This document shows, piece after piece, positions 2,681-26,861 of a DNA stretch of 32,000 nt. How positions within the stretch are numbered: position 1 is the stretch's first letter; each line of letters opens with the position of its first letter. The notes below the pieces were generated by a model. The model worked only from the letters and a program-made list of their open reading frames with translations. It searched no databases and was not told the origin of the DNA. The DNA is from Desulfotalea psychrophila LSv54 (GTDB lineage Bacteria; Desulfobacterota; Desulfobulbia; Desulfobulbales; Desulfocapsaceae): positions 89,588 to 121,587 of the forward strand of contig NC_006139.1 in assembly GCF_000025945.1 (NCBI RefSeq), written 5' to 3'. A program made the position numbers and the translations under genes.

Positions 2681-2686
2681 CTATTT

Positions 2687-3829: not shown

Positions 3830-3840
3830 TGATAGAAAGT

Positions 3841-4935
3841 TTATAACTTTATATTGTTAATAAGTGATTGATAAACATCGACTGTTAAATCTCCAATTAT
3901 ATTCCAATTTAGTTCAGAATATAACTTTTTATGTCCTGCCTCACCAAAACGCTCTCTTTTTTCTTTACATATTAAAAGATCACATAATGCATTGGCAAGT
4001 TCGTTTACATTTTCTTTTTCAACTAATATTCCTGTTTTAAGATGATCTACAACCTCAGAGATAGCCCCCACATTACTAGCCACGACAGCTTTTTTAAAAT
4101 CATATGCTATAGGGATAATACCACTTTGACTTGCCTCTCTATACGGCAGGACAATCACACTTGCTTCTTGAAATAATTGAGAAATTTCTTCATCTGGGAT
4201 GAATTTGTTAATGATCTTATATTTATTATAGTCAGTAATTAATTTTTCATATTCTCCAAATTTTGAACATCTTCCAGCAACTATGATTTTGAGATTTTGT
4301 ATTTTCTTGGAAATTAAAGGCTCCGCTTTTATGAGAATATCTAGACCTTTATAGTGATGTATTCTCCCAAAGAATAGAATTGTATTTTCTTGTTCTTTGT
4401 AAAAATTACTATTCTTTAATCTATAGTAAGTTAGTGGCCCATGCGGGATTACATGAATTTGCTGATTTTCTATCCATGGATGTTTGTCGAGTAACTCATT
4501 TTTTAAAATCTCGCCATGAACTATAAACTTGTGTGACATTTTTCTCAAAATATGTTGAGTAATTTCAATCCACTTTTTTTCTTCTCCTATGTGAGATTTA
4601 ACATCATGTACTGTAATAACTATACCGTACTTTCGAAAAAGTAACCTCAGCGGAATAAACCAAACATGCTCTCCTTGAAAATGGATAATATCAGGTTTAA
4701 ATGATTTTACTTCAAAAAATATTTTAATAATTAAAATAATGTTTTTTAGCATATTTCGGATACGTGGCTTATGGAATTTAATAAAATCACCATGGAATCC
4801 GGCCTTATGCGATGAATCCATTAAATTACTATTATTAGAAACAAAAATGAACTTTTTTGATACTTTATCGCTAAGTCCTTCAGCCAATCCTAAAACATAT
4901 TCATCAAAATGGTACGATATATGTACAATCCGCAT
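3841..4935 (-). CDS. glycosyltransferase family 4
   Basis: The ORF track gives 3841-4989, but MRIVHISYHF (ATG 4933-4935) is the typical GT4 N-terminus. The C-terminal region YREASQSGIIPIAYDFKKAVVASNVGAISEVV..GILVE matches the GT4 nucleotide-sugar binding region. Confidence 0.85.
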   Translation of the reverse strand: MRIVHISYHFDEYVLGLAEGLSDKVSKKFIFVSNNSNLMDSSHKAGFHGDFIKFHKPRIRNMLKNIILIIKIFFEVKSFKPDIIHFQGEHVWFIPLRLLFRKYGIVITVHDVKSHIGEEKKWIEITQHILRKMSHKFIVHGEILKNELLDKHPWIENQQIHVIPHGPLTYYRLKNSNFYKEQENTILFFGRIHHYKGLDILIKAEPLISKKIQNLKIIVAGRCSKFGEYEKLITDYNKYKIINKFIPDEEISQLFQEASVIVLPYREASQSGIIPIAYDFKKAVVASNVGAISEVVDHLKTGILVEKENVNELANALCDLLICKEKRERFGEAGHKKLYSELNWNIIGDLTVDVYQSLINNIKL

Positions 4936-5090
4936 AATCCTTTTTCCATTATATTGCCAATAAATTAGTTTGTAGTTTGCACAAGACATTCATACCGTTT
5001 TCACAGTGACAAAAAAACCAATGAACTCTCATGTAAATTCAACCGAAAATACAAAATTAATAAAAAATTTATTATATGAGATATAAACCT

Positions 5091-6173
5091 TCACTCCAAC
5101 GTCCCCAAACATCTAAGAAATACATCAGATTTAATCCTCTCTTGCTGGATTATTTTATTTACTTTATCCCAATCAATTGAGCTTTTTATTATATCACTTG
5201 AGAAATCAGTAAGGTCAAAAACCAACCTATCATTTAAACCAAATATGTTTAGTAATGAATTAAATCTAGTATACCCTCTTTTTTTATTTGCATAAGCGAT
5301 AAATGGCTTATTAAAGATAATAGAAAATACAACTCCATGAAATGAGTCAGTAAATACAAAGTCTGCATCGTTAAAACCATTAATCCAACTATAAACCGAC
5401 CGGTAGTGAAAAAAAGACCAAAACAGTACTCGTTTCTCCAACTTCCTACCTACAGTAAAGGAATCCTTTTGCAAAATTTCACACACTTTTCTCGATAATT
5501 CGCTGTATGCAGGATTATCGTCTAAAAGATAGTGCAATACCTTCCCTTGATTATTTTCCTCCTGCACGTGCAAGCTACGGTACTCATCAGCATGCAGCAA
5601 AAAAGCAGGATCAAGCACCAGTTCCGCTTTAAAATTGAGATGATCTGCGCACAATTGGATCCCAGAATCTTCCCGCACAGAAACAGCAGTGAATCGATTT
5701 AATAATTGTTTTATATTTTCAGTTTCTTGCTCGTCTATCGTCCATTTGTCAATGCCGAAAGAGGCAGCAAAGGATAGTAATGTTTTATTGGAACTCGCTA
5801 CGAAGTCAAAAAAATATTCTTTTTTACTATCCTTAGTATAATCGAAACGCCAGACCTGATCGCTACCAACAATGAATGCATCAAAAGAATAATCAATACA
5901 ATTATAATCTTTTCTGCATGTAATTGGTTTTGTAAGTTTCATATTGCTGTATTCAAACTCTTTCATTGCAGAGTAATCAATAATTATTGGACAAAACCCT
6001 ATCATCTTCTTAACTAAATTTTTAAAATTTTGAAAATTTGATATTTGACTTGAAACCCTTTGAATAACTAAGACATCATGCCCTTGCTTTTTCAAATATG
6101 TCTGCAGTGCGTATGATTGCAATAATCCGCCATAATTGTTATTAAAGGGTAGCGTTAATATTCCTACTTTCAT
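5091..6173 (-). CDS. polysaccharide pyruvyl transferase family protein (WcaK/CsaB-like)
   Basis: 360 aa. The N-terminus MKVGILTLPFNNNYGGLLQSYALQTYLKKQGHDV is the characteristic start of PS_pyruv_trans family proteins. ..VGSDQVWR.. and the C-terminal ..TDSFHGVVFSIIFNKPF.. also fit. Confidence 0.85.
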   Translation of the reverse strand: MKVGILTLPFNNNYGGLLQSYALQTYLKKQGHDVLVIQRVSSQISNFQNFKNLVKKMIGFCPIIIDYSAMKEFEYSNMKLTKPITCRKDYNCIDYSFDAFIVGSDQVWRFDYTKDSKKEYFFDFVASSNKTLLSFAASFGIDKWTIDEQETENIKQLLNRFTAVSVREDSGIQLCADHLNFKAELVLDPAFLLHADEYRSLHVQEENNQGKVLHYLLDDNPAYSELSRKVCEILQKDSFTVGRKLEKRVLFWSFFHYRSVYSWINGFNDADFVFTDSFHGVVFSIIFNKPFIAYANKKRGYTRFNSLLNIFGLNDRLVFDLTDFSSDIIKSSIDWDKVNKIIQQERIKSDVFLRCLGTLE

Positions 6174-6253
6174 TAAATTCCTTACAGTTTTCTGTATAAG
6201 TTCCGAAATTTTACTAAAAAAATTTGATTACCACTAATGTTCAGCTAGTACAG

Positions 6254-7212
6254 GGCCTTGTTGCACAAATAGAAGTTGCTGACGCTGCTCGATGATGTTT
6301 TCTTGCAACATGGAGCATTGGAGGAGTTATGGGAGACAGTAGGAGAAAGATCAAAAACTGGCCGGAGTGGGGCACTAAAGCAATAGCTGTGACGTTTTGG
6401 GTGGACAAGAAAGCGATTGAAAGTTGGTACAGTACGACTGTATCAGAGCAGCGTGGCCGTGTCGCAAGTACGCGGATGATGCACGACCTGTTTGATGTGG
6501 AACCATTTATGGACTGTCTCTCAAGGGTACAGAAGGTTTTCTAAATTCACTTTTTGAACTGATGGATATCGACCTCCAGCCGCCTGATACACCTGTCAGT
6601 AGACGTGCACGAACTGTTGAGATGAATTGCAGGTTGCCAAGTCGTGGGACGATTAAGCATATCGATTCGACTGGGTGTAAACCATGGAGAAGGAGAGTGG
6701 AGCGTCAGAAAACACGGGGCTTCCAAACGTAGAACCTGGCGTAAAAGTCACCTTGCAATCGATACCGAGACTGATCGCCTAAGTGGTGAAATTTCTATGG
6801 AGTGAGTTCATGATTCCAAGGTATTGGGACCTCTTCGTCATCGCATTGAACAGATATCGGATGATGGCGCCGGACACGAAGGATTGCTATGCCGTGGCCA
6901 AGAAAAAAGGATCAGTTGCGACTATACCTCCACGGAAAAATGCTGACATGTGGGAGGATGGGCACCCACAAAATGATGCGGTAAAAGCACAGGGTGTCAT
7001 CAAAGGTCTCTTGCTGAAACGGCGATGTATCGCTACAAACAGTTGATCAGTGGCAAATTAAGCCTCCGCGAGGAGGCAAGCAGGTAGGGCTGCGATCAAG
7101 GCTTTGAACAAAATTAATACGTTAGGGATGCCTGTTCGAGAGGGCGTTTGCTAAGATGAAATGAAGCAGAGAGGGACTGATTTCCTTCTCTCATGATTTA
7201 TGCAACAAGGTC
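6254..7212 (+). mobile_element. IS5-family (IS903 group) element, decayed transposase
   Basis: Inverted ends: GGCCTTGTTGCACAAATAG (from 6254) versus the reverse complement of 7191-7212, GACCTTGTTGCATAAATCATGA. Plus-strand frames give RRKIKNWPEW..VTFWVDKKAIESWY.., ..GEGEWSVRKHGASKRRTWRKSHLAIDTETD.., ..LAETAMYRYKQLISGKLSLR.. and AIKALNKINTLGMPVREGVC*. These track the IS903 transposase (NWPAYN.., GEGEWKVKKHG..WRKLHLAVD, IAETAMYRVKQL, ALNKMTKAGMP). They are spread over all three frames with internal stops. Confidence 0.85.
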
Positions 7213-7617
7213 TCACCGAGACACTTTCTATCATCTTGAGCTCAACCATTTTTCCCGCCAATAGCCGCATAGCCCAGCGCTCTCCACCCTCTGAGATTTC
7301 TGAACACGCAAGCGCTAATAGATGAGCTTCAAACTCTCCGCCAAAGTGAATTTTCCTGGGTGGGGTTAATCGTTTCTTACGCTCAATAGCAGCTGTAACT
7401 CCCTGCTCAACTCATATATTCTAGACTACGAGTTGTGACGTCCCAAGCGCTTCTGCAACTTTGCTACAACCCATTTTGGCCCATATTCATCAGCATCAAG
7501 CACTAGGAGTGCTCTTGCATATAAAACGGTTCGAGCAGCTCTTCTCCCCTTTGTCGAAATAGCTTCCGGATCTTTGCGTTCTTCCTCAGTCAGTGTCACT
7601 CGATAATGTGGTGCCAT
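7213..7617 (-). pseudogene. IS630-family transposase, N-terminal HTH fragment, truncated by the IS903-like insertion
   Basis: Minus strand: MAPHYRVTLTEEERKDPEAISTKGRRAARTVLYARALLVLDADEYGPKWVVAKLQKRLG.. (ATG 7615-7617). After a frameshift near 7430 it continues ..VEQGVTAAIERKKRLTPPRKIHFGGEFEAHLLALACSEISEGGERWAMRLLAGKMVELKMIESVS. This pattern is typical of IS630-family N-terminal domains. The reading frame stops abruptly at the right end of the IS5-family element (7212). Confidence 0.75.
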
Positions 7618-7705
7618 CTCTTCCTCCAATTGATTATAATTATGGAGGATTATACAAGAAAACAAATAAACAGCGAACAGTTAAAGCTTACTGTGTACTA
7701 GGTGG

Positions 7706-9250
7706 CTATGCCTTATTCAAAAGCAAAGATGCTTTACCCACTAGCCGTTTACCTGCCCTGCAAGCAAAGCCCCGCTCCGAGTCATCCAGTGCCCATAACC
7801 AACTGGCCAGCAAAGAAACTACAATACAAACTGCCGTGGTTAAAACCAATCGGCTAAAAGACGGTGACAAAAGACAACGGGACAGCAGGGCGCTGAGGGT
7901 GGCGGCAGTGGCAACCATGCCGCAGGGTATGAGGACTGACGTGAGCCATTTGGTGACCGGCATGCCGAGCAGCCTTTGACCCCATAGAACCCTGCCCAGA
8001 GAACAAACAGTCATGGTGATGATAAATGCCACCCCAACGCTTGTGGGCGGATAGCCGAGTTTAAGAAAGAGCCAGGCCAGGGGCAGGGTTAGAACCAGGC
8101 TTGTGCCAAGGGTTGCCTGGTAGACGGCGATCCTGCCGTGGGCATTTATGGCAAGCATATATCCCGAGGTCAGGCGATCGATCAGAAAAGTGGTCAGGAT
8201 CAAGCGGCAGAACATGGCGGTATATTCCGGGGGCTGACGGAGCCAGAGTTTCAGTACGTATTCCATTTCAGTCATTAGGGGAATGGCGAACAGGAGGATG
8301 AGGATTGTGGCGAATTTGGTGGATCGAAGGGATAACGACAGCATCCGTTCACGATCACCCCGCCCCTCGCAGGAAGTGATCTCCGGGGAAAATGCACCCA
8401 TCATGGCAGCGGAAAGTTGGTTGGTTTGGGCGGAAACCTGATTGGCGATAGCGTAGGCAGCATTAACCTTGGCACCGAAAAATATATTCAGCAAAATAGC
8501 CGAGCCTTGATTACGAAGCAATGCTCCAAGGCAGCCGATTAGATTCCAGATGGCGAATGAAAAAATTTCCTTCAGCCGTTTTTTATCGAACCAATACCGC
8601 CTTTCCACAGCACATTCCCTGAAAAGAAAAAGAGCTCGGAATATCTGGCAGGATTGCACAAAGACAGGAATCATTGCCATCCCGCCAGCATACCATAAGA
8701 GGCGGTCACCCGAAGCCTGGGTCAGAAAAAATGCAAGGATAAAGGTTAAAACGGATTGAACCATTCCCCAACTGGCAATTTCAGGCATATGCTGTTTGGC
8801 GGTGAACATGGCGATAAACGGTACGGAGACCATGCCAAAAAAGGTGGAGACCAGCGAAATGCGAAAAACCCATAGGCAGGCGCTTATGCGGTCTGCCGGA
8901 ATGGTAAGATAGTTTGCAATGACATATTCGCCGAGGGGCCACCCGGTCAGGATCAAACCCGTTGCAAGACAGAGATGAATACTGAATGCAGCGTTGAACC
9001 AGCGCTTCACCTCTTCAGGATTCCCTTGCCCCATGGCATAGGCAAAGTGTCGGGAGGCACTTGCTGCCATGACCGAGTTCAGAAAAGAGATGAAAATAAT
9101 GAGGGAACCGACAACCGTAAAAAGGCCGAAATCAGTTTGCCCCAGAGCATTCAGCACCCAGCGACTGCTAAACAGCGCCAGGCCGATGGCGAAAACAGAA
9201 CGGGTATATGTAGCTGCCGTGTTGATAATAATACGATGCGAGGGATTCAT
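7706..9250 (-). CDS. wzx: Wzx-type oligosaccharide flippase (MOP/polysaccharide biosynthesis protein family)
   Basis: 514 aa with about 12-14 TM segments. The N-terminus MNPSHRIIINTAATYTRSVFAIGLALFSSRWVLNALGQTDFGLFTVVGSLI is typical of polysaccharide-biosynthesis flippases. ATG at 9248-9250. Confidence 0.8.
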   Translation of the reverse strand: MNPSHRIIINTAATYTRSVFAIGLALFSSRWVLNALGQTDFGLFTVVGSLIIFISFLNSVMAASASRHFAYAMGQGNPEEVKRWFNAAFSIHLCLATGLILTGWPLGEYVIANYLTIPADRISACLWVFRISLVSTFFGMVSVPFIAMFTAKQHMPEIASWGMVQSVLTFILAFFLTQASGDRLLWYAGGMAMIPVFVQSCQIFRALFLFRECAVERRYWFDKKRLKEIFSFAIWNLIGCLGALLRNQGSAILLNIFFGAKVNAAYAIANQVSAQTNQLSAAMMGAFSPEITSCEGRGDRERMLSLSLRSTKFATILILLFAIPLMTEMEYVLKLWLRQPPEYTAMFCRLILTTFLIDRLTSGYMLAINAHGRIAVYQATLGTSLVLTLPLAWLFLKLGYPPTSVGVAFIITMTVCSLGRVLWGQRLLGMPVTKWLTSVLIPCGMVATAATLSALLSRCLLSPSFSRLVLTTAVCIVVSLLASWLWALDDSERGFACRAGKRLVGKASLLLNKA

Positions 9251-9414: not shown

Positions 9415-10581
9415 TTATATCACCCGCATCCGACGCAGAACTCGGCCAGCCAGTCTTTTCACCTTGCCAGCCCTTCTACGCCACAGCGGAGTTGGCCGCA
9501 TATAGCGTTTCATTACTTTTTCAAAAGGAAGAGTGTTCAAGTCGCTGAAAAATGCTTCACGACGCGCCCCCGGTGCAACCGAACCGCAAATACAAGGGTT
9601 CGACTGAATTGCCACGTTCAAATCCGCATCATGTACCGTGATATCCTGCCGACAGGCATCAAAGGCACTCTTTCCCTTTTCCGTCTGGACGATAACCAGC
9701 GAAGTTCCCCGATCATCATCCCACTCCGGATGATGTGTCCCGACACCCCAGAAATCAGCCAATGAAATATCTGCAACTCTGGGCAGACGCGAAAAATTGC
9801 ACGCATGGCATGACGGGCGCAAGTATGTATTGGATAAAAAACCGATCATGAATGCATCTTCGTTCAAAACACGGCGATACTCTGTATCGTTGTCGAATGA
9901 CAAGGATACAGAGAATCGCTTCCAGCCAAAATTCTTTCGTCTGAAAGCGATTCTCTGCGCTTTCGCGCCATGCTGGCGCTCAAGCTCGGCACGGTACGCC
10001 GCAAAAACTTTCGGAGAAGGCACACCGTGGCATACAACATCACAGGTAAGGAGATTATCATACTCTTTGCGGAGAAAAGCATACAGTCCGGCTATCTGGC
10101 ACGGGGTGCCTGAAAACAAAACCTGCCGACCCTGCTTGAGATATTTCCGGGCCTCCTGATACGCAGTACCGATGGTACTCTGCAAATATTTTGACCCCCG
10201 CAATGCCTGCCCTTCCACCTCATTGTGAGCGGCTTGATGACAGAGAGTCATGGAATCATCAAATGCAGCACCAAAAACGACCCCGTTTTGTTCAAAGGTG
10301 CACTGCATAAGAGCATTGAAAACCCCCCCAGAGGAACTGTCCGCACGAACATCCTCATTCCGATTCCACGCGGCAAAGGCTACCGAATCCCCTTCCTGCC
10401 GAGGAGGATTGATTACAGGACACACCGATTCGCAAAGCCCGCATTCAGGACAAAGAGATTCATCAACCATCGGATAAAGAAACCCCTCTGTATCGGGAAG
10501 CATCTGTATACATTTAGCCGGACATATAGACAGACACGCATGACAGCCGCAGCAGTCTTCTTTTGTATTTAGATGAATCAT
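9415..10581 (-). CDS. FrhB/FdhB-like protein (coenzyme F420 hydrogenase/dehydrogenase beta-subunit family) with N-terminal 2x[4Fe-4S] ferredoxin domain
   Basis: There are two CxxCxxCxxxCP motifs (CCGCHACLSICPAKC and CPECGLCESVCPV), followed by an FrhB-type core (..GGVFNALM.., ..SKYLQS.., ..VLFSGTPCQIAGL.., ..CHGVPS..). The likely start is MIHLNTKEDCCGC (ATG 10579-10581). The 55-codon upstream extension in the ORF track has no supporting features. Confidence 0.8.
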   Translation of the reverse strand: MIHLNTKEDCCGCHACLSICPAKCIQMLPDTEGFLYPMVDESLCPECGLCESVCPVINPPRQEGDSVAFAAWNRNEDVRADSSSGGVFNALMQCTFEQNGVVFGAAFDDSMTLCHQAAHNEVEGQALRGSKYLQSTIGTAYQEARKYLKQGRQVLFSGTPCQIAGLYAFLRKEYDNLLTCDVVCHGVPSPKVFAAYRAELERQHGAKAQRIAFRRKNFGWKRFSVSLSFDNDTEYRRVLNEDAFMIGFLSNTYLRPSCHACNFSRLPRVADISLADFWGVGTHHPEWDDDRGTSLVIVQTEKGKSAFDACRQDITVHDADLNVAIQSNPCICGSVAPGARREAFFSDLNTLPFEKVMKRYMRPTPLWRRRAGKVKRLAGRVLRRMRVI

Positions 10582-11035
10582 TGTAAATCCATAGTGGGCA
10601 GAATCATTGAAATCGCTAAAAAACGTATAAGTGTTTGCCTGGGTCTCTGAGACAAACAAGTGCTTAATTTTCATACTTAAAAACATGTTTTCGGCGTCAG
10701 GATACACCCATTCCGCCCAAAACAGCCATTTCCAACACATATCCATCCGATATCAAAAACAAAAACTCAAAAACGAACGGTAAGCCGGGCTTTATCCAAC
10801 CTTTTGAGATGACTGCGTGGAGGAAATAGTTCAACTCAGCCAGTGAGATTCCTCATTCTCCCGCTAATTGCCTCTGGCTGACGTTGATGGCCAGACGACG
10901 GCAGCTGGCAAGGCATTTCGTCTGCAAGAGCAGGCATGGAGGTTTTCGATATTTTTAGTTAGGAAATTGGCTCGTGGCTGAAGCTTAATGGATCTGTAAA
11001 TCTTGCAACTACTACTGAACAAATTCTCAAATTGG

Positions 11036-11047
11036 CACGCTACCGCC
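11036..11047 (-). promoter_or_regulatory. ops (operon polarity suppressor) element, RfaH loading site
   Basis: Plus strand reads CACGCTACCGCC, so the minus strand reads GGCGGTAGCGTG. This is a perfect match to the ops consensus GGCGGTAGnnTG. It is in the sense orientation of the operon, intergenic, and about 110 nt downstream of the rfaH-like stop. Confidence 0.7.
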
Positions 11048-11051
11048 ATTT

Positions 11052-11072
11052 GGGTGAACATTGCGTTCACCC
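11052..11072 (-). other. perfect 8-bp stem / 5-nt loop hairpin 4 nt upstream (in transcript sense) of ops
   Basis: GGGTGAAC-attgc-GTTCACCC (11052-11059 and 11065-11072). No U-tract follows, so it is not an intrinsic terminator. It could be part of a JUMPStart-like leader. Confidence 0.5.
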
Positions 11073-11089
11073 GTTGAAGACTTACACTA

Positions 11090-11118
11090 ATCTTACGTTT
11101 AAGTGATCGTTTAGTAAA
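11090..11118 (-). promoter_or_regulatory. candidate sigma70-type promoter for the ops-containing leader
   Basis: Minus strand reads TTTACT (11118-11113), a 17-nt spacer, then TAAGAT (11095-11090). This would place the transcription start about 35 nt upstream of ops. Based on sequence pattern only. Confidence 0.35.
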
Positions 11119-11159
11119 GGAAAAAAAACTTTATTATTAGGCCAATGAACGATCAGCTT

Positions 11160-11741
11160 TCAATCAATCTTGATGCGATCTAACGACACCGTGGTTTTAA
11201 CCTGTCGACTGAGGATATTGAGTAAGACATCCACATTCTCACTTCCCCGAATGGAGTAAACTACAGCCTCAACACTTTCTAAACCAGGGATATTGACTGT
11301 GACGACAGAGCCGGGTGTCAGGTTTTCTTTTATGAGGTCTTTTGCTAGGATAGAGAGGCCTTTATCTTCTCGGGCTTTAAGGTCGCTTATCACCCAACCA
11401 GGGATCTCGATATAGCTATCTCCAAAACACAGTGCCCCAAGTGAACCACGGGTTGAAGCTATTGCAGTCCAGTTTTGTTCTGCCGGGGCAAGGTTGAGAA
11501 AAAGGTAACCAGGGAAAAAGGCAACAAGCTTTTCAGTAGTGCTTCTCGCGTGATGGACAGTTTTGCGAAGCAGGGGTAGGTACACAGTATACCCCTGTCG
11601 TTGATAGTTGAATTTGGCGACCTCTTCTTTTTTGTTCTTGGTACGAATTGCATACCAATGACCTTCAGTTTCGTTATCTCTCATCATGTTTATCAATTGC
11701 TCCCTCTCCATGGTTAAGATGTTGGGTCCCCATCCGGGCAT
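11160..11741 (-). CDS. rfaH: RfaH-type specialised NusG paralog (transcription antiterminator)
   Basis: Aligns by eye along the full length of E. coli RfaH. WYAIRTKNKKEEVAKFNYQRQGYTVYLPLL matches WYLLYCKRGQLQRAQEHLERQAVNCLAPMI. FFPGYLFLNL matches LFPNYLFVEF. TRGSLGALCFG matches TRGVSHFVRFG. The KOW region PGSVVTVNIPGLESVEAVVYS..VDVLLNILSRQVKTTV matches [37 protein letters not shown]. The real start is probably internal (MEREQL at 11711 or MMRDNE at 11687). Confidence 0.85.
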   Translation of the reverse strand: MPGWGPNILTMEREQLINMMRDNETEGHWYAIRTKNKKEEVAKFNYQRQGYTVYLPLLRKTVHHARSTTEKLVAFFPGYLFLNLAPAEQNWTAIASTRGSLGALCFGDSYIEIPGWVISDLKAREDKGLSILAKDLIKENLTPGSVVTVNIPGLESVEAVVYSIRGSENVDVLLNILSRQVKTTVSLDRIKID

Positions 11742-11784
11742 AGAGGATCAAGGTATTTTTTGCAACCCGCTCGGCGGTTCCCAT

Positions 11785-13041
11785 CTAAGCCACACCCCCT
11801 TTACTTTTTTCGATCTGCTTAGGGCCAGATCCAACGAGGCTGATCAGCACGGTAAAAATGAGAGCATTGGCCGGAATATGCAGATTAAAATCGACAGAGG
11901 AGTGACAGGCAATTGCCAGCAGCCCAGCCAGAGCAGCCAAGGTGAATCCCCAGGTTTGTCGGCTAGCCTCTTTTATTTTCCTACAAGCTTGTTTAGCAAC
12001 AGTGAGTAAAGCCCAAAGGATAATCAGCACTACGGGCAGACCAAGTTCGGCGATGAACTGCAGATAGTCGTTATGGGCATAGTAGAAGCGGGCACTGGTT
12101 CCCGGTAGTTGAAACTGGGTAAAGATGGTGGCGAAGGAGCCGGGGCCAGAGCCTATGAAGGGGTGGGCCGCAATCATTTTATAGACGCCCTGCCAGGTGT
12201 GGCTGCGACCATTCAGCCCGGCAACTGTCTCCTGATCGGTAAGGGAGAGCAGACGTTCGAGGATGTCGGAGCCGGCCAGGATAAAAATCGAGAGGAGGAG
12301 GGTGAAGGAGATGATGAGCAGGAGAAGCTTTTTCGCTCTAAAGCGCTTTTGGCCAAGAAGAACAGTTGCCATAAAGAGGAGGGAGAGGGCAAGGGCTAGC
12401 CAGCCACCCCGGGAGAGGGTGGCGATATGGGCAGCTAGCAAAATCAAGCTGATCAGCAACAGGGCAAAAAAGCTTACGCCCCTTCTCGTTCGAGTGAGAA
12501 AAAGGCAGAGGCTCAAGGGAATAACCATCTCCAGATAGCCCGCCAAATGGTTATGATTGCCGTAGGTACTGGTTATAAATGTATCATGCTGAAGATAGTC
12601 CCACCAGGGGAAGGGCTTGTAGCCAAGCATCTTAAAAAAACCAAAGATAGAGAGGAAAATCCCCAGCCCAATGAGCAAACAGACCAGCATCCGCTCCTTC
12701 TTACGGCTATCGATCAGATGGATCACTGAGTAGTATAAGAGGATATAGGTAAAGAGCAGCATCAGGGCATCGACGCCAACACCTTTTAGCGGAGAGAGGG
12801 CAAAGCTGAGCAGGGTCCAGAGAATCAGGGCCAGAATGGGATAGAAGAGAGGGGTTGGAATAAAGAGAGCTCTGTTGCTGCTGGTAACTTTTAGGAAGGT
12901 GAAGTAGCTGGTGATAATAACAAGAATCTGCAGAGTCGATTGGGCCCAGGGAGAGACGCTGCCCCGGGCGAGGGGGGCAAAGAGGAGTAGGGCAAAGAGA
13001 GAGGCCATGGCAAGAGAGTCATAGATTTGCTGACGGTTCAT
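11785..13041 (-). CDS. O-antigen ligase / Wzy_C family membrane protein
   Basis: 418 aa and polytopic. Motifs ..HIATLSRGGWLALALSLLF.. and ..YYAHNDYLQFIAELGLPVV.. are typical of the O-antigen ligase (Wzy_C) domain. Its start overlaps the upstream stop as ATGA (13038-13041). Confidence 0.8.
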   Translation of the reverse strand: MNRQQIYDSLAMASLFALLLFAPLARGSVSPWAQSTLQILVIITSYFTFLKVTSSNRALFIPTPLFYPILALILWTLLSFALSPLKGVGVDALMLLFTYILLYYSVIHLIDSRKKERMLVCLLIGLGIFLSIFGFFKMLGYKPFPWWDYLQHDTFITSTYGNHNHLAGYLEMVIPLSLCLFLTRTRRGVSFFALLLISLILLAAHIATLSRGGWLALALSLLFMATVLLGQKRFRAKKLLLLIISFTLLLSIFILAGSDILERLLSLTDQETVAGLNGRSHTWQGVYKMIAAHPFIGSGPGSFATIFTQFQLPGTSARFYYAHNDYLQFIAELGLPVVLIILWALLTVAKQACRKIKEASRQTWGFTLAALAGLLAIACHSSVDFNLHIPANALIFTVLISLVGSGPKQIEKSKGGVA

Positions 13042-14624
13042 GATCTCCTCCTGAGCTGGGCCAACTGTTTCTGGTACCTTGCGTTGCCAGGCTCCAGAAC
13101 AACTGCTCTCTCTGCATACTCTCTGGCAAGCTCATCGTTTTTGCCGGCCTGATAGGCCAGGGAGATCTGAAACAGAAAGCCTGGTACTTCGGGTTTAAGC
13201 CTGCTTGCCTCTTGCCAGTCAGCAATGGCAGCACTGTACTTTTTTTGGGCATAACGAATCCAGCCACGTTTATTGAAATACCAGGGGTTTGGCCTCAGGC
13301 TTGTGGTAAGGACCTCATTCATGGCCGCTTCGGCCTGGGGATATTTCTTCTGCTGCTCAAGAGACCTGGCAAAAAGGTAGTGGTATTCAGGCCTTGTCCT
13401 ATCTTCAACAACTGCTTTCTGGGCGGCAAGCTCCATCCGATCCCAATCCTTCTGCTCACTGTAGATACGGGCAAGACAGTAGTAGCTCTCGCCAGCATAG
13501 CGACCTGTGGTCAGCCGCTGAAAACGGGCAATGGCAAGTTCGGGTTGGCCGCTATACATCAGACTTTTACCAAGGTAGATATCGGTTATTGCTGGCAACT
13601 CTCTCTCCTGCCCGGCTCTTTTAACAAAGAGAAAAAAATCTGTCTCCCGTTTTACCCCGTGATAACTGTTAAATATCTGCTCAATAGCGCTGTTTTTGTT
13701 CTCGTTCTGACGAAAGGCCTCTAAAAAATAGCTTATCGCTTTAGAGGTATCTTCTATCTGCAGGGCCAGGCGTCCCGCCTGAAGGTACAGGTTAGGGCTG
13801 TTCCGTTGATAGGGGAATGCCAATTGCTGCTCACAATAGCTGAGGGCGGTGGGGAAATCTTTTCGTTCAAGCGCGATGTTTCGCAATACGCCAAGGGCAT
13901 CACCTCTTAAATTTGTGCTCGTACTTGCCTGCAAAGCTCCCCGCTCCACCGCTGAACGAAGAGAGTCCGTATAGAAGTCCTCTTTTCTCAGCTTATAAAA
14001 GAGGAAGGGAGCGATTGCCATAAGCTGCTCAATCTCAGTCAACATTTGACTCTGCATCCCCCTCTCGGCAAGATAGAGAATAAAAGCGTAGGCTCGTGAC
14101 GCTGAGTTGGGGCGAAGCTGTTGGGCTTTTGCAAAGATGGGCAGGGCATCATAGAGCTGTTGCCTATCACTTCGGCGGGATAAAGATTGCAAAGCTGCCA
14201 GAGTTGAGGCCCAGCCGGCCATAGCAGTGGAGTCATAGGGGTTCAAATCTACCGCCTGCTTATAGGCCCGAGCCGAGTTCTCCAGCTCTTTTTTAAAAAG
14301 AGAGAGAGAGTTGGCATTGGCCGCAAGTCTGAAATAGAGCTGCCCCTTCACTGTTTCGATTCTGTGAAGATCGTCTGCAAAGAGGGTGATGCCTGCAGAG
14401 TGAAACGGCAGATAGTGTAGAGAGAGGTTCAATTTGGCTAAAGCTTTATCAAGAGATGGACGCTCCAACAGGGTCAGAGCACTCTGATAGTGCCAGCGGG
14501 AAAAGCTGAGCATAGCGAGTATCCCGAGCATGGCCAGAACCAGCACGTTTGCCAGCTTAAGGCCTCTCTTGCCCCACTCACTCGCCATAATAGGCACTGG
14601 GATAACCATAGTAGCTGCTTTCAC
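13038..14624 (-). CDS. membrane-anchored TPR-repeat protein
   Basis: One N-terminal TM segment (LKLANVLVLAMLGILAMLSF), then repeated A/Y/L-rich 34-residue-type units (..AIARFQRL.., ..YYCLARIY.., ..AEAAMNEVL.., ..ISLAYQAGKNDELAREYAERAVVLEP..). Start is uncertain: GTG at 14624, or ATG at 14609 or 14588. The first overlaps the kinase gene by 47 nt. Confidence 0.8.
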   Translation of the reverse strand: MKAATMVIPVPIMASEWGKRGLKLANVLVLAMLGILAMLSFSRWHYQSALTLLERPSLDKALAKLNLSLHYLPFHSAGITLFADDLHRIETVKGQLYFRLAANANSLSLFKKELENSARAYKQAVDLNPYDSTAMAGWASTLAALQSLSRRSDRQQLYDALPIFAKAQQLRPNSASRAYAFILYLAERGMQSQMLTEIEQLMAIAPFLFYKLRKEDFYTDSLRSAVERGALQASTSTNLRGDALGVLRNIALERKDFPTALSYCEQQLAFPYQRNSPNLYLQAGRLALQIEDTSKAISYFLEAFRQNENKNSAIEQIFNSYHGVKRETDFFLFVKRAGQERELPAITDIYLGKSLMYSGQPELAIARFQRLTTGRYAGESYYCLARIYSEQKDWDRMELAAQKAVVEDRTRPEYHYLFARSLEQQKKYPQAEAAMNEVLTTSLRPNPWYFNKRGWIRYAQKKYSAAIADWQEASRLKPEVPGFLFQISLAYQAGKNDELAREYAERAVVLEPGNARYQKQLAQLRRRS

Positions 14625-15336
14625 GGCTATCTGCCTGGTTCAACACAGCCCCCAGAACATTGGCACCCGAGCCCTCTATCCGAGTTAAGGCATCTTTGAG
14701 TGCCTTCTTATTGCCTCCCCCAAACTGAACAATCATCAAGGCGCCATCACAATATGGGCTCAACATCAAGGCATCACTGGCCGGCAACACCGGCGAGGTG
14801 TCCACAATCACCATATCATACCTCTGGCGACAGGCAGCAAAAATGGCCGAAAGCCCTTGAGCCCCAAAAAGGGCAAGAGGATTGGGGGGGATCGCTCCCG
14901 AGGGAAGCAAAAAGAGATTATCATACTCTGTGGCAATAACAGTCTGGGCAAGACTCTCCATAAGATGCTCACTCTCCAGAAGGGTTTGCCCCAAGGTTTC
15001 ACTGATCAATGAGGAGAGCCCGAACCTGGGTTTAACTTTTCCCGAGCAAAAGCAGGTCGTCAGACCTGGCCTTCGCAAATCAGCATCCACCATCAGAACT
15101 GACTGCCCCATCTGGGCCATGGTGCGGGCGAGATTGGCAACGGTGGTAGATTTTCCCTCCCCCGGCAAAGCGCTGGTCACCAAGAGCACCTGCAACTTTT
15201 TATCAAGGCTGGCAAAGTGGAGATTGGTTCGTAAAGTTCGATAGGATTCGGCATACCGCGATTTAACAGAAAAATTACTCAACAGTGCCTTGACACCGCT
15301 ATCTGTTTTACTCTCAGCTCTCTTCTGGAAAAACAT
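14578..15336 (-). CDS. BY-kinase catalytic subunit (CpsD/CapB-type tyrosine autokinase)
   Basis: Walker A is LPGEGKSTT. Walker A-prime is VLMVDADLRRP. Walker B is MVIVDTSPV. The C-terminal tyrosine cluster is SRESSYYGYPSAYYGE. The ATG at 15334-15336 overlaps the upstream TGA (TGATG). Confidence 0.9.
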   Translation of the reverse strand: MFFQKRAESKTDSGVKALLSNFSVKSRYAESYRTLRTNLHFASLDKKLQVLLVTSALPGEGKSTTVANLARTMAQMGQSVLMVDADLRRPGLTTCFCSGKVKPRFGLSSLISETLGQTLLESEHLMESLAQTVIATEYDNLFLLPSGAIPPNPLALFGAQGLSAIFAACRQRYDMVIVDTSPVLPASDALMLSPYCDGALMIVQFGGGNKKALKDALTRIEGSGANVLGAVLNQADSRESSYYGYPSAYYGE

Positions 15337-16862
15337 CAATAGCCCTCCTTCGAAGCATTCAGCATGTCAGTAGATGGCACTGTGGCGAGAACCGGAATAT
15401 CCAAATAGGTACGAAGATCATCTTCGGTGCGGATGGATTGGTCAAAGTACTCCAGTAAAAAGGCAAGGCCTATACCACCAAAGAGCCCCAGCACCAGGGC
15501 AAGCAGCAGATTCTTCCGCTTATTTGGCGAAACTGGAGCCACCGGAACCGAAGAGTACTCTACCACCCTGATATTAGAAGAAGTTCCCGAAGAGAGGAGG
15601 TTTGACTCCTTAATTTTAGAGACCAAGGTGTCATAGAGACTCTGACTGGTGGTCAGGTTACGTTGCAAAATGGTATAGCGCAACTCTTTGCCACTGGCGT
15701 CCACTGCCTCATCCTCAAACTGGGCAACATTTTCCTCCATGATCTGCTCTTTACTCAGGAGAATGGCCCGTTCGGTTTTTAAATTTTCTAACTCTTTCTT
15801 CAACTCAATTCTAATTTTGAACCGATTTTTGCTGATCTCACTATCAATCTGAACCATCTTTGGATGCTTAGACTTATAGACTTTGGTTAGGCGGGTACGT
15901 TGCAACTCAAGGCGAGTGAGATTCTCAGAGATGGCATCAATGGAGGGATTACCCAGCAAGGAGCGGATATGGGTAATATCTCCGGAAGAGGCCGCAAGAC
16001 GCTTGATCTCGGCAAGTTTAGCATCAATCTCCTGACGCTTATTACGCGCTTCCAGATATTGATCATTAAACTCCTCAATTTTATGGCCAATTTCCTGCTG
16101 CTTGCCATCAATTGAGAACAACTTACTCACCTGTTTGAAGTCGTGGAACTTCTGTTCACCATCTTCAAGTCGCTTTTTCAGTTGATAGAGTTGGCCATTC
16201 ATCCACTCCAGATTCTCTTTGGATGACGAGAGCCGACTCTCCATATCAAACTCGATATACTCCCTGGCAAGGGTATTGGCGAGACGGCTGGCCAATACCG
16301 GATCGGTATTTTCGGCACTGATGGTCAAGAGCCGGGTGTCACGCACCTGCTCAATGGTGATAAGGTCTTGAATTTGCTTTACCAGAGAGGCCAGCTTCTC
16401 ATCTTCGCTCAGCTCACTGGCTTCGCCATCCTGCTCCGGGGAGAATCGGGCCAGGAGCAGTTTAATGTTGGCCTTAATCTGTTGCTTGATTCTGGCAAGC
16501 GGTGAGGCGATAACATCCTCCTCTTTCTCATCCAGCTTAAGTTTTTTAACCAGAGCTAACACCACCGGTTTAGAGTGGATCAGCTTAAAGTGGGTATTAA
16601 AGGTGAGTAACTGGGACGCATAGCTCGAATTGTCAATACGCTCGCCTGTCAGGGGCGAAGAGGTCTGCTCCTTATCAATCACGAGGTTGGCCGTGGCCTG
16701 GTATACCGGTTTCATCATAAAACTCGCCGCCATCACCAGAACCACTGTCACCAGCAAAAACAGGAGAATCAGCCGCTTGCGCTTAACAAGAATTTGAATG
16801 TAATCAGAAAGATGAATCTCTTCTTCAAACTCATTTATTGAATTTTGCACAATACCCCACAA
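15336..16862 (-). CDS. polysaccharide co-polymerase (Wzz/GumC-type chain-length determinant, kinase-less)
   Basis: N-terminal Wzz-type segment IHLSDYIQILVKRKRLILLFLLVTVVLV..KPVYQATANLVID. This is followed by a long coiled-coil periplasmic region and a C-terminal ..VVEYSSVPVAPVSPNKRKNLLLALVLGLFGGIGLAFLLEYFD second TM. The start is non-ATG: TTG at 16862, or more likely GTG at 16850. Confidence 0.85.
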   Translation of the reverse strand: MWGIVQNSINEFEEEIHLSDYIQILVKRKRLILLFLLVTVVLVMAASFMMKPVYQATANLVIDKEQTSSPLTGERIDNSSYASQLLTFNTHFKLIHSKPVVLALVKKLKLDEKEEDVIASPLARIKQQIKANIKLLLARFSPEQDGEASELSEDEKLASLVKQIQDLITIEQVRDTRLLTISAENTDPVLASRLANTLAREYIEFDMESRLSSSKENLEWMNGQLYQLKKRLEDGEQKFHDFKQVSKLFSIDGKQQEIGHKIEEFNDQYLEARNKRQEIDAKLAEIKRLAASSGDITHIRSLLGNPSIDAISENLTRLELQRTRLTKVYKSKHPKMVQIDSEISKNRFKIRIELKKELENLKTERAILLSKEQIMEENVAQFEDEAVDASGKELRYTILQRNLTTSQSLYDTLVSKIKESNLLSSGTSSNIRVVEYSSVPVAPVSPNKRKNLLLALVLGLFGGIGLAFLLEYFDQSIRTEDDLRTYLDIPVLATVPSTDMLNASKEGY

Positions 16863-16879
16863 ACCTTTTCGTTAATCTC

Positions 16880-17737
16880 TTAGAACCAGGATTCTGGAAC
16901 ATTCAATCTATCGCCGGGCTGCAGGGGATAATCTGGGATTTTCCCATCCACTACATCCTCTAGATTGACCTTAATAACCTTCTGCTTATTATTTTCAGTT
17001 CGAACAATTATAGCTCGGTTGGGCGCTGCATAATCATCAAATCCACCGGCCATTAAACAGATACTCAGGGCGGTTAGGCCTGGCTGGTACTCCTGCAGGC
17101 CCGGATTTTTAATGCGCCCTCCCACGTAGACCATAGAGTCGCCTTGACGAAGCCCTTTAGCCAAGGGGATATAGATTGAATCTCCAGTCTCAAGCCGAAG
17201 ATTCCCACTCATATCGCCTTCGTCGAGCAGCTTGGTCAGGTTCACCTTAAGGGGTTTGCTCTCTTTGTCTCCCCGGTTGCTTTCGCGCATCACATAGGCC
17301 AGAGAACCACGTTCACTGGTGACACCTCCGGCCTTGGCGATCAACTCCATCACCGTTGTTGCAGACTGCATCTTGTATTTCCCTGCCTTGGTCACCGCGC
17401 CCGAAATGGTGTAGTGCAGGCTGTGATAGCCATCTACTTGGATAATCACTTGGGGGTTGATGAAATAGTCTTTTGCCAGCTTGGTATAGAGTCTCTTTTC
17501 AAGGTCACTGGGCGTTGCTCCAGCGGCATGGATACTGCCCACAAAAGGGGCATTTATCTTGCCGCTATCTGAAACGGTTAAGGCGACCTGGACCTGCTCC
17601 TCTCCTCCTGCAAAAACTGAGACACTGATGATGTCACCAGCGCCGAGCTTGTATCCCAAAGAAGCTTGGGCCGAACTGCTCCAGATAACGATGAGCAGTA
17701 AAACGATGAGATCTCTTTTCATATAGAGCCAGTGCAT
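16880..17737 (-). CDS. short OPX-family polysaccharide export protein (Poly_export + SLBB domains), no lipobox, no C-terminal OM helix
   Basis: Signal peptide ..LIVLLLIVIWSSSAQA with no Cys. Also YKLGAGDIISVSVF (Poly_export PES motif region) and two SLBB-like segments (..GAVTKAGKY.., ..VYVGGRIKNPGLQEY..). At only 285 aa it is too short to contain a Wza-type D4 helix. Alternative start MKRDL at 17722. Confidence 0.85.
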   Translation of the reverse strand: MHWLYMKRDLIVLLLIVIWSSSAQASLGYKLGAGDIISVSVFAGGEEQVQVALTVSDSGKINAPFVGSIHAAGATPSDLEKRLYTKLAKDYFINPQVIIQVDGYHSLHYTISGAVTKAGKYKMQSATTVMELIAKAGGVTSERGSLAYVMRESNRGDKESKPLKVNLTKLLDEGDMSGNLRLETGDSIYIPLAKGLRQGDSMVYVGGRIKNPGLQEYQPGLTALSICLMAGGFDDYAAPNRAIIVRTENNKQKVIKVNLEDVVDGKIPDYPLQPGDRLNVPESWF

Positions 17738-17742
17738 ACGCG

Positions 17743-18947
17743 TTAAAAATTATAATCGAGGCTTATTATGCCAAAGGTGTTTTGGTAAGACATGCCGGTT
17801 GCATTTGAGTCCCGATCTTCATAGCCTATTTCTAGGCTTACTATTAAATTCTGCAGTAGATCATAGCCAACAACAGCAGCTATTTTATAGGTGTTGTCAT
17901 CTCTATCGGTGTTGTTATCACCGTTATATACGTCATAAGCAGAGTTTTGGTAATACCCTTTAAGGGTGCTTGTTAATTTTTCCATGAACCGATAGCCCGC
18001 ATTCATGTTTAAACGAGTTGCCAGGTAATAGGAGTCGCCAGTTCCTGCATCATTGTAGTTCTGGGTCAGAGAGGTCAAAAAATGAAATTTGCGTTTTGTC
18101 GGATCTAAATCTGGTTTTTCCCCCTTCAGCGAAATGGCCCATGAGAAGCTGTCTCTATCCTCAACGGCAGCCTGATCAAAATTTCGTTTATGATAACCAC
18201 CGCCCACGTTAAATTGGAGATAATTGAAGTGGTACTGGTAGTTCAGCCAGACCTCGTTAGAGAGATAGTCACTGCTGTCTTCGCTATCGTAATCTCTGGC
18301 CCAAACGTCGTAGCTAATGAAAATTTTACTGTCACTGTTCAGGTGGTAGTTGAAGTCAAAGGTTCCCTTGTTTTGGATAGAGTCGGTGCCATCATCAGTA
18401 TAATCGGGATAGAGATTGCCATAGCCAGCTATGGCCGAAAATTTTTGGCCAAATTCATAATCCCAAACATCTCAAAATCATTGATCAGAAATTTTTCACG
18501 GTCTGTGGAGTTACTTAATTTATCGGCTTGGGCTGAATCTCGTGTGTAGTGGATTCGGTCGTAACCGTTGATGGCAAATCGATCTGTTACCTGCGAAGAG
18601 AGTGACAGGAAAGCTAGATATCCTAAATAGTTATCGTCACTTGCGCTTTTTACACCCGTTGGCCTACTGTCGAGGTTATCATAGATATACCCCTCTAGAA
18701 CGGCCATTCCTGTGATCTTGGTTTTGCCTGTATCGTAGACTGCCTCAATCCCAGGTCGAATTGTATAGGTCATCGTGCTGATTTCGTTATTTTCCGACAT
18801 CCAGAAGTTCGAGTCATATTGAGTTTCTACTTCAATGCTTGTGGTGATATCTGTTTTGGCAAAAGCAGGAGTTATTAAAAAAGAACTCAAACAGATAAAG
18901 AGACAAGATGACCCGAATGTTTTTGCAGAAACAATCTTTCTTTGCAT
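17743..18947 (-). pseudogene. outer-membrane beta-barrel protein of the EPS export module, split by a single frameshift near 18455-18462
   Basis: The N-terminal part (frame of ORF 18429-19040) has a real start MQRKIVSAKTF.. at 18945-18947, behind AAGAGGA. Its signal peptide is ..LSSFLITPAFA. The rest (frame of ORF 17743-18207) stays open upward to about 18430: ..YEFGQKFSAIAGYGNLYPDYTDDGTDSIQNKGTFDFNYHLNSDSKIFISYDVWARDYDS..NVGGGYHKRNF..ISLDYNF*. The protein shows an alternating beta-strand pattern and a terminal aromatic residue. The frames switch inside ..gggattatgaatttggccaaaaatttt.. . Confidence 0.7.
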
Positions 18948-19014
18948 TGTGTATCCTCTTCCGTGTGTAATCAGGCAAAACAAGTGTAATTGCCACGGAC
19001 TATTAGCCAATTTT

Positions 19015-20004: not shown

Positions 20005-20043
20005 ACACACTCCACATTACGTAAAATAATTACGACGAGTAAA

Positions 20044-20754
20044 TTATTTGCCAATTAAATCAAAACTACTAGCAGCCATCTCTTCAGCAAAAGATGAACC
20101 TAAAATTGAAGCAATGCGCTTATACCCTTTGTGCAAAAGAGGCTTTCTCTGCGTGGCATCATGGGCATCTGACGCGATATAGGAGACACTTTTGCTTGTA
20201 AGGAGATCTAAAACAAAACTTTGTTTCATAAAACTCTCAAAGCGTCCCGGCAGGCTAGAAGCTGTTAACTGAAACTCCACGCCCATTCTTATAAGATTTT
20301 TTACAAAAGTGGGGTTCTGCTCAAGCACCATATTTCTTTCTGGATGAGCAATAATAATATGTAAACCCGAGGAGAGTAGCTGGCATAAAGTATTCCAAAT
20401 CCACTCTTCAACAAATTGTTCCGGGAGTTCAATTAATAAACTTTTGCCTAAACCTCCCAGGGTGAGCAGTTGCTTTTGCGCAAGCAGATCCAGTATCTCT
20501 GGAACCAAACGTATCTCAGCCCCAGGGTATACCCGCAGAGGGATGCCAGCATTAACAAGCTCTAAGCTAAATTGGGCAGAGCACTTTAAAATATCCACCG
20601 CTCTACAGTCATGCACACCATCCAAACAGTGGGGGGTTGCTATCATGTGAGTAATACCATCTCGAACTGCTATACGAGCCATTTTCAAAGCAATTTTGAC
20701 ATCTTGAGGCCCATCATCCAAACATGGCAATATATGAGAGTGTAGATCAAGCAA
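20044..20754 (-). CDS. PHP-domain (CpsB/CapC-type) protein-tyrosine phosphatase
   Basis: The N-terminus (TTG start) LDLHSHILPCLDDGPQD..ITHMIATPH, then ..IIIAHPER.. and ..IASDAHD.., are the metal-binding His/Asp motifs of CpsB-type Mn-dependent phosphatases. Confidence 0.9.
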   Translation of the reverse strand: MLDLHSHILPCLDDGPQDVKIALKMARIAVRDGITHMIATPHCLDGVHDCRAVDILKCSAQFSLELVNAGIPLRVYPGAEIRLVPEILDLLAQKQLLTLGGLGKSLLIELPEQFVEEWIWNTLCQLLSSGLHIIIAHPERNMVLEQNPTFVKNLIRMGVEFQLTASSLPGRFESFMKQSFVLDLLTSKSVSYIASDAHDATQRKPLLHKGYKRIASILGSSFAEEMAASSFDLIGK

Positions 20755-26860: not shown

Positions 26861-26861
26861 G

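Follow-up and report, generated by a model that had tools for sequence, protein, structure and literature searches.

A conserved hairpin-ops element behind an rfaH-like gene in an exopolysaccharide cluster of Desulfotalea psychrophila: a candidate RfaH-type elongation-control module

Does the exopolysaccharide (EPS) gene cluster of Desulfotalea psychrophila LSv54 (Thermodesulfobacteriota, order Desulfobulbales) contain a working RfaH-type control point for transcript elongation? The window, by which we mean the whole stretch of DNA analysed, covers 32,000 nt of NC_006139.1 (positions 89,588-121,587) and carries a Wzx/Wzy-type EPS cluster on its minus strand. An earlier note, made from the letters of the window alone, had described in the middle of this cluster a gene for an RfaH-like protein followed by an operon polarity suppressor (ops) site, and had taken the two for a self-contained antitermination module. 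Our analysis indicates that the rfaH-like gene and a composite hairpin-box-ops element 112 nt behind it probably constitute a functional RfaH-type elongation-control module.

In the leader of its presumed target operon, the ops 12-mer (Table 1) occupies the non-template strand and matched the consensus GGCGGTAGnnTG at every position. Dinucleotide shuffles of the window gave an expectation of 0.01 matches for this consensus. The distance of 112 nt from the stop codon of the rfaH-like gene was close to the 110 nt or so estimated before, and the strand was that of all the EPS genes between 901 and 20754. The exact 12-mer, its spacing and its sense orientation were thus as the earlier note had claimed. 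Two one-mismatch matches to ops within coding regions of the window were no more than chance predicts. A second ops, which had been reported missing from 20755-21442, was found neither there nor elsewhere in the window. The element was likewise single in the window, even when three mismatches to its 20-mer core, TTCACCCRAATGGCGGTAGC, were allowed.

The 12-mer turned out to be the 3' end of a longer conserved unit of 47 nt, which is composed of a hairpin, a TTCACCCAAAT box (TTCACCCRAAT in its general form) and the canonical ops. This element was 79-87% identical to its counterparts in six relatives, as against 22-46% for the 60-nt flanks.

The same arrangement was found beside close homologues of the gene. 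In a set of nine loci (L001-L009), whose encoded proteins are 53-72% identical to the D. psychrophila RfaH-like protein, all nine carried, 3' of the rfaH-like gene and in its orientation, the block GTTCAACGnnTGAAC-N5/6-TTCACCCGAATGGCGGTAGC(GT/CC/CT)GCC, and three had the exact 12-mer. Two of the loci (L004 and L005) also have the kinase-TPR-Wzy_C order upstream of the rfaH-like gene that is seen in the window.

A scan of 185,579 species genomes with the exact pattern TTCACCCRAATGGCGGWAGC returned 107 stretches (D. psychrophila itself was not among the matches), against about four expected by chance, as we estimate for a pattern with 19 fixed bases over 1.2e12 positions. Most of the stretches came from the Alphaproteobacteria (Nitrobacter, Methylocystis, Hyphomicrobium, Rhodospirillales and Roseiarcus) and the Desulfobacterota (Desulfobulbaceae, SeepSRB2, Desulfatiglans and Thermodesulfobacteriaceae). 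A few matches, mainly of the GGCGGAAGC variant (Paenibacillus, Akkermansiaceae and Eubacteriales), are likely due to chance.

The 107 stretches were sorted by their linkage to rfaH-like genes, using a hidden Markov model (HMM) built from the family. An rfaH-like open reading frame (ORF) ended within 450 nt upstream of the element and on the same strand in 53 of them, began just downstream of it in six, and lay elsewhere in the stretch in three. There was no rfaH-like ORF within 800 nt upstream in 36, and nine could not be judged. The six loci with the element first and the gene second, an autoregulatory order like that of plasmid PrfaH, are all alphaproteobacterial (L022, L024, L030, L032, L054 and L092); L032 has two element copies, 283 nt apart. 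At L061 and L110 the rfaH-like gene beside the element was in two pieces, ORFs that overlap or adjoin each other; either these are pseudogenes or the assembly has frameshifts. Two further copies, L018 and L093, were on contigs binned into Heimdallarchaeota or 'archaeon' metagenome-assembled genomes (MAGs), that of L093 together with a bacterial-type rfaH-like gene; both are probably binning contamination.

A second sample was anchored on the protein. It consisted of 80 metagenome loci with relatives 31-70% identical, fetched blind to DNA motifs, and 74 of them had at least 150 nt of downstream sequence. In 36 of these 74, exact GGCGGTAG followed the gene on its own strand at a distance of up to 700 nt, compared with about 0.8 expected. 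The sequence preceding ops was of three types: the TTCACCCRAAT box (type A), GCGAGG...CCTTGCAG immediately before ops (type B), and ...GGTAG before ops (type C).

A chance match beside an unrelated NusG paralogue, which has only the shortness of the motif in its favor, is refuted by these conservation and linkage statistics, and we assign it a negligible probability. Judged from the sequence comparisons, the 12-mer is not a chance match. Its conservation beside homologues in many genomes also disposed of the concern, voiced in the earlier note, that it might be confined to this genome. By the same comparisons, the adjacency of rfaH and ops is an ancestral cassette common to two phyla. The regulator had been thought to be kept here beside AT-rich DNA that it has to rescue; because the cassette is shared by two phyla, the pairing would not have been placed at this site for that purpose.

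Copies of the element were also found apart from rfaH-like genes. Several assemblies contained two or three elements on separate contigs, as in a SeepSRB2 MAG with one rfaH-linked copy (L104) and one unlinked copy (L040). Such multiple copies suggest a regulon. The unlinked copies (among them L038, L045, L089, L112, L020, L056, L036, L041 and L074) preceded Wza/outer-membrane barrel/Wzz export operons or genes for DegT aminotransferases, epimerases, dehydratases, UDP-sugar dehydrogenases and Wzz, and all eight sampled genes downstream of elements matched polysaccharide families in Pfam. Since the element heads unlinked polysaccharide operons in relatives, the RfaH-like protein probably also acts in trans. 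The same copies, which stand ahead of export and sugar-nucleotide genes, make it doubtful that the module is self-contained.

The ORF of the regulator (11160-11741, minus strand) is intact and ends with a TGA at 11162-11160. The NCBI protein 'transcriptional activator RfaH [Desulfotalea psychrophila]' matches the ORF with 100% identity from residue 19 to residue 193, and since this protein is 175 aa long, the likely start is 11687 rather than 11741. Pfam detected the NusG NGN domain at 64.9 bits, and the protein had the full-length two-domain architecture of NusG-like proteins, with an NGN domain and a KOW-derived C-terminal domain. The top NCBIfam model was RfaH (TIGR01955, 88.3 bits), aligned over model positions 1-157 of 159, and this was also the best model for all 97 family members scanned. 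The scores on UpxY (NF033644, 47.1 bits, cut-off 100), LoaP (NF033641, 23.3 bits, cut-off 125) and housekeeping NusG (TIGR00922, the fifth-ranked model, 21.2 bits, cut-off 135.7) all fell below the levels for membership.

A sequence search of the PDB gave E. coli RfaH chains as the sole matches (E = 2e-7, residues 11-168 against RfaH 4-155). The end-to-end alignment with RfaH claimed earlier was thus recovered with both model and protein. The structures ranked highest by Foldseek were again RfaH chains, with 5OND (RfaH bound to ops) at the top. On this evidence from sequence, the gene product is an RfaH-like NusG paralogue distinct from housekeeping NusG, and NusG and the other paralogue classes, the outcomes that would have spoken against the earlier proposal, scored lower. 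A scan of viral contigs with the protein found no relatives, and a megablast of 10400-12400 against PLSDB gave no match.

The residues K10, H20, R23, Q24 and R73 of E. coli RfaH are, as we take it from the literature on 5OND, those that contact G5 and T6 of ops. Four of them had identical counterparts in the D. psychrophila protein (K17, R30, Q31 and R80) in an alignment of about 25% identity. F56, which E. coli RfaH requires for binding RNA polymerase (RNAP), corresponds to F63, a residue that does not vary within the family. The 175-aa ORF retained every family-invariant residue.

These parts could be put together in a working scheme, every step of which is modeled on E. coli RfaH, where the ops pause, the exposure of the non-template strand, binding by the NGN domain and the exclusion of NusG and Rho are described in PMC7819879 and PMC7593976. 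RNAP, having transcribed the export and polymerisation genes upstream or started at a weak internal promoter, would pause at ops, in which G2, T11 and G12 fit the consensus pause. The paused complex would leave non-template ops bases exposed, and the NGN domain of the RfaH-like protein would bind them and remain on the polymerase. The bound protein would exclude NusG, hence block Rho, and would possibly recruit ribosomes, to which RfaH couples through S10. Transcription would then cross the 454-nt ORF-free stretch, an insertion-sequence (IS) scar and the AT-rich glycosyltransferase genes. It is plausible, as a prediction, that the dependence on the RfaH-like protein is limited to the distal half of the cluster.

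Several observations weigh against this scheme. The 88.3 bits on TIGR01955 are well under the curated cut-off of 144.5, and the score on NF006534 was 65.8 against a cut-off of 124, so the protein did not reach the level of an RfaH equivalog with either model. The HMM search proposed in the earlier note thus bore out RfaH, not NusG, as the best model, but not equivalence to RfaH. The fifth ops-contact residue, H20, is replaced (it aligns with N27), and the autoinhibition salt bridge E48-R138 is not kept. At the DNA level, five of the nine close-homologue loci read GGCGGTAGCCCG, with T11 changed to C (a pyrimidine at 11 and the G at 12 are kept), and one reads GGCGGAAGCCTG / GGCGGAAG, with T6 changed to A. 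The TTCACCCRAAT box is without a counterpart in the E. coli mechanism. The local promoter hexamers fit 8 of 12 consensus positions, and a promoter scan did not report them. Decay is seen in several neighbors: in marR, at the IS scar and, elsewhere in the window, in a Tn3 element.

The predicted fold also belongs to the points against. From 16 sequences, AlphaFold2 (AF2) modeled the NGN domain with confidence, but the C-terminal domain came out mixed and at low confidence; with 97 sequences, all five models had a four-strand beta C-terminal domain at a predicted local distance difference test score (pLDDT) of about 80-85. Because AF2 gives a beta-barrel here and not the alpha-hairpin of RfaH, the activation cycle known from E. 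coli may not hold for this protein. This hints at an RfaH-like protein without fold switching, although a prediction alone is compatible with switching as well.

A bolder version may be built on this fold. The protein would be non-metamorphic, with its C-terminal domain always a beta-barrel, would act mainly in cis, and would read a hitherto undescribed, deeply conserved hairpin-TTCACCCRAAT-ops signal of Alphaproteobacteria and Thermodesulfobacteriota. This would be the ancestral mode, and the source of both the trans-acting, autoinhibited enterobacterial RfaH and the minimal 12-nt ops. A 2026 preprint (PMC13015549) proposes that non-fold-switching ('monomorphic') RfaH homologues act in cis beside long lipopolysaccharide (LPS) operons. 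The predicted beta C-terminal domain and the position of the gene beside its site and a long EPS operon resemble these homologues and would fit that proposal. Trans action would also occur, because there are unlinked element copies in relatives. We regard the bolder version as tentative and rather doubtful.

The hairpin before ops was found with its perfect 8-bp stem, as described earlier, and RNAfold gave -13.7 kcal/mol for the 32 nt preceding ops. In all three flank types, the hairpin predicted by RNAfold ended 1-4 nt before ops. Type A stems at 117 related sites had a mean of 5.5 of 7 pairs, compared with 4.1 in shuffles, and at least six stem pairs were formed at 59% of the sites, compared with 6% in shuffles. 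Type B stems varied between loci on both sides, with compensatory changes recognized by inspection. The 5' arm of type A stems had A-to-G changes that preserved G-U pairs, but often also an uncompensated mismatch; the 3' arm, TTCACCC, was constant at the collected sites, being partly fixed by the search pattern used to collect them. Because the 3' arm is fixed and the 5' arm mismatched, the type A hairpin region appears to be constrained by a reader at the sequence level too.

LoaP binds a leader hairpin, and one may ask whether the present element is also read mainly as RNA, with the hairpin and its flanks bound by the RfaH-like protein, or with the hairpin acting on pausing or against backtracking, and the ops letters being part of the RNA signal. 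This would account for a hairpin that ends at nearly the same place in three sequence types, for the compensatory changes in type B and for the preserved G-U pairs in type A. It would also suit the TTCACCCRAAT box, which should lie outside the single-stranded DNA exposed in the ops-paused E. coli complex, by inference from the established structure. On the other hand, the unpaired core GGCGGTAG is the same as the E. coli DNA signal, most of the residues that contact ops DNA are retained, and the fixed 3' arm with its mismatched 5' arm in type A points to sequence read-out and not to pure structure. Nor was an Rfam family matched: the window gave no match at gathering scores and none at E up to 10 in 10700-11250, and the elements of 14 related loci gave no match at E up to 0.1. 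The Rfam library presumably includes the JUMPstart motif. Reading mainly as RNA is therefore unlikely in our estimation; as an extra layer, it would be compatible with the RfaH-type module.

Two other roles were considered for the hairpin. As an intrinsic terminator it was dropped, since it is not followed by a T-run, and a scan found no intrinsic terminator between the rfaH-like gene and ops. As a his-type pause hairpin it would be too distant for the class, its stem ending 16 nt before the expected 3' end of the pause, counted by hand.

Table 1. Positions in the window of the module and of the neighboring features
Feature	Position	Strand	Remarks
ops 12-mer	11036-11047	-	GGCGGTAGCGTG; sense (non-template) strand; exact match to GGCGGTAGnnTG
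Conserved leader element, 47 nt	11034-11080	-	TCTTCAACGGGTGAACGCAATGTTCACCCAAATGGCGGTAGCGTGCC; hairpin-TTCACCCRAAT-ops, ops at 3' end
Hairpin	11052-11072	-	Perfect 8-bp stem GGGTGAAC/GTTCACCC, loop GCAAT; ends 4 nt before ops
rfaH-like gene	11160-11687	-	Specialised NusG paralogue, 175 aa; NGN and KOW-like C-terminal domain; open frame reaches 11741
Promoter remnant, weak, sigma-70-like	11090-11118	-	TTTACT (11118-11113), 17-nt spacer, TAAGAT (11095-11090)
Stretch without intact ORF, 454 nt	10582-11035	-	From ops to first intact downstream gene (ATG at 10581)
MarR-family EPS-associated regulator pseudogene	10770-10937	-	TIGR04176; located by tblastn of intact orthologues
FrhB/FdhB-like 4Fe-4S protein gene	9415-10581	-	First intact gene after ops; Pfam FrhB_FdhB_C, FrhB_FdhB_N, Fer4
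Wzx-type flippase gene	7706-9250	-	Pfam Polysacc_synt
Gap with broken ORFs and no intact genes, about 1.5 kb	6174-7705		Weak DDE_Tnp_1 match at 6644-6805 (E = 0.006, below cut-off)
Distal AT-rich block	901-6173	-	Pyruvyl transferase, GT1, EpsG-type polymerase, GT1; 24-33% GC
Upstream cluster part	11785-20754	-	CpsB phosphatase, two unknown genes, barrel fragment, Wza, Wzz/GNVR, BY-kinase ATPase, TPR, Wzy_C

The earlier note had also placed a plausible promoter before the element and a leader of about 455 nt behind it. The promoter hexamers and their spacing were present as given. Their plausibility suffered from the poor fit and the silent scan mentioned above, and from the comparison with relatives: the aligned position in L002, L007 and L008 holds TTGACA-18-CATAAT, which the scan scored at 11 of 12 in L002 and L007. 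By this alignment, the window promoter is a degenerate copy of the near-consensus promoter of the relatives.

The length of the leader was also nearly right, at 454 nt, but it was not empty. All three of its frames have stops, and between 10996 and about 10880 it is rich in C and poor in G (C 31-32%, G 14-19%). It contains the remnant of a gene for a MarR-family EPS-associated regulator (MarR_EPS). Intact 113-aa orthologues searched by tblastn against 11100-10400 of the minus strand gave E = 2e-14 to 1e-13, split across two frames. The remnant has a frameshift after MPALADEM and an in-frame stop between GE and GISL; about 24 codons are deleted, and the 3' end is cut short, KARLTVRF being followed by a stop. 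The frameshift, in-frame stop and deletion mark this copy as a pseudogene. An intact MarR_EPS gene (113-151 aa) is the next gene behind the element in six of the nine close-homologue loci. The orthologues scored 138-142 bits on TIGR04176 (cut-off 88 bits), whereas the window copy is not an intact ORF. Desulfobacterota have the MarR_EPS gene behind the element, whereas Alphaproteobacteria have it ahead of the rfaH-like gene.

With MarR_EPS genes flanking the module in many loci, on the one side or the other, the element could be imagined as a DNA operator of this regulator, conserved through the binding of a repressor or activator near the promoter. An inverted repeat, GTTCA-N5-TGAAC, is indeed located just past the promoter in the Desulfobulbales copies, and in the window, where marR is dead, its left half-site is mutated to CTTCA. 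However, the invariant 20-mer is not palindromic, its core is the ops of RfaH, and it is kept in loci without a nearby MarR_EPS gene as well as in the window with its marR pseudogene; the GTTCA repeat is missing from the alphaproteobacterial copies. We consider an operator a very unlikely explanation of the element. The repeat itself, which in L001-L009 overlaps the 5' arm of the hairpin, may be an operator. Its mutated half-site in the window (11073-11080, minus strand) coincides with the loss of marR_EPS.

A spacing of 97 nt separates the upstream part of the cluster from the start of the rfaH-like gene. Downstream of ops, the open frame of the FrhB-like gene reaches 10746, and its domains start about 59 residues into the long ORF. 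The gap at 6174-7705 is probably an IS scar. The GC content is about 48-52% over 7-20 kb and 24-33% below about 6 kb, and the distal glycosyltransferase/EpsG/pyruvyl-transferase block looks foreign. The ops site had been said to sit exactly where transcription enters this IS-interrupted, AT-rich DNA. This was not found: the scar begins 3.3 kb and the AT-rich block about 4.9 kb farther on, with two genes of about 50% GC between.

The decay in the neighborhood brings up the question whether the module is an inherited relic in a dying EPS cluster, with distal transcription already broken and the gene and element simply not yet mutated. The marR pseudogene, the degenerate promoter, the 1.5-kb gene-free scar, a barrel ORF whose match is limited to the C-terminal third of its family, and the broken transposase of the Tn3 element would all agree with such a history. 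Less easily reconciled with it are the 175-aa ORF with all its family-invariant residues and the distal biosynthesis genes, which are all intact ORFs. The 47-nt element has remained whole and its stem perfect, while a frameshift, a stop and a deletion are found in DNA 100 nt away. Because it stayed intact beside the decayed marR gene, the element appears to be under selection in the window. We therefore think a relic quite unlikely, and prefer the functional RfaH-type module.

The barrel ORF lies at 17743-18207 (minus strand, 154 aa), between cpsB and wza. Its match to the BBP2_2 outer-membrane barrel family was confined to the C-terminal third, and it may be truncated or frameshifted; by tblastn, this region showed no similarity to the outer-membrane barrel gene that related export operons contain. 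The stretch 23845-27422 (minus strand) holds the Tn3-family transposase, which is broken into at least three ORFs (DUF4158 and two DDE_Tnp_Tn3 pieces), beside an intact resolvase gene (26862-27422). Farther along, 29894-31090 (minus strand) encodes a 398-aa protein with a MerR helix-turn-helix (HTH) domain fused to an S-adenosylmethionine-dependent methyltransferase domain.

Stem-loops upstream of ops are known from JUMPStart leaders, and the hairpin described here is like them in this respect. The locus also resembles the RfaH-ops systems of E. coli, Salmonella and Klebsiella, which serve LPS, capsule, hemolysin and tra operons, in having an exact ops on the sense strand in a leader before polysaccharide genes; RfaH and ops-JUMPStart have been described for Klebsiella cps (PMC3438125). 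The protein aligns with RfaH from end to end, with K10, R23, Q24, R73 and F56 kept in the alignment.

There are also clear differences from the enterobacterial systems. According to PMC7593976, the enterobacterial gene is monocistronic, lies apart from its targets and acts on them in trans, and recruitment is known in detail solely for E. coli RfaH. The D. psychrophila gene, in contrast, is linked and ends 112 nt before ops. Its product scores 88 bits where 144.5 are required, does not have H20 and E48-R138, and is predicted by AF2 to have a beta-barrel C-terminal domain. The ops is accompanied by the extra invariant TTCACCCRAAT box, and the host is a member of the Thermodesulfobacteriota.

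Outside the enterobacteria, RfaH-like genes have been reported in 23 phyla with envelope-gene neighbors, including a published HTH-associated cluster, CL4 (Wang et al. 2020, PMC7593976). Compared by description, the present locus is like clusters CL2-CL8, and especially CL4, in having an RfaH-like gene near envelope or exopolysaccharide genes and an HTH regulator. The available parts of PMC7593976 and PMC13015549 treat neighborhoods and folds and give no recruitment site, unlike the present case, in which a specific conserved hairpin-ops element was found.

A regulator in or beside the operon that it serves is a feature shared with Bacteroides UpxY, plasmid PrfaH, Myxococcus TaA and Bacillus LoaP, which likewise have long polysaccharide, antibiotic or conjugation operons. 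The RfaH model fits the D. psychrophila protein better than UpxY (47 bits) or LoaP (23 bits). PrfaH, of IncX plasmids, likewise acts through a site resembling ops within its own operon (PMC11880322). For both PrfaH and UpxY the signal precedes the regulator gene, whereas it is downstream in the window and in 53 of the 107 stretches; the six alphaproteobacterial loci with the reverse order are PrfaH-like.

A search of the literature open to searching did not find the hairpin-box-ops element, or conservation of ops in these phyla, described, and a full-text search for GGCGGTAG returned unrelated primer lists only. For the window alone, the module would be the expected kind of EPS cluster regulation. 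The wider point is that the same ops core stands beside rfaH-like genes in two distant phyla, with an invariant 11-nt box and a hairpin as extensions and in physical linkage to the gene of the regulator. For annotation, TTCACCCRAATGGCGGTAGC marks polysaccharide-operon leaders in Alphaproteobacteria and Desulfobacterota. The element provides a concrete candidate recruitment site for non-enterobacterial RfaH-like proteins, and the locus may serve as a natural test case for the ancestral, non-fold-switching, cis-acting RfaH homologues proposed in PMC13015549.

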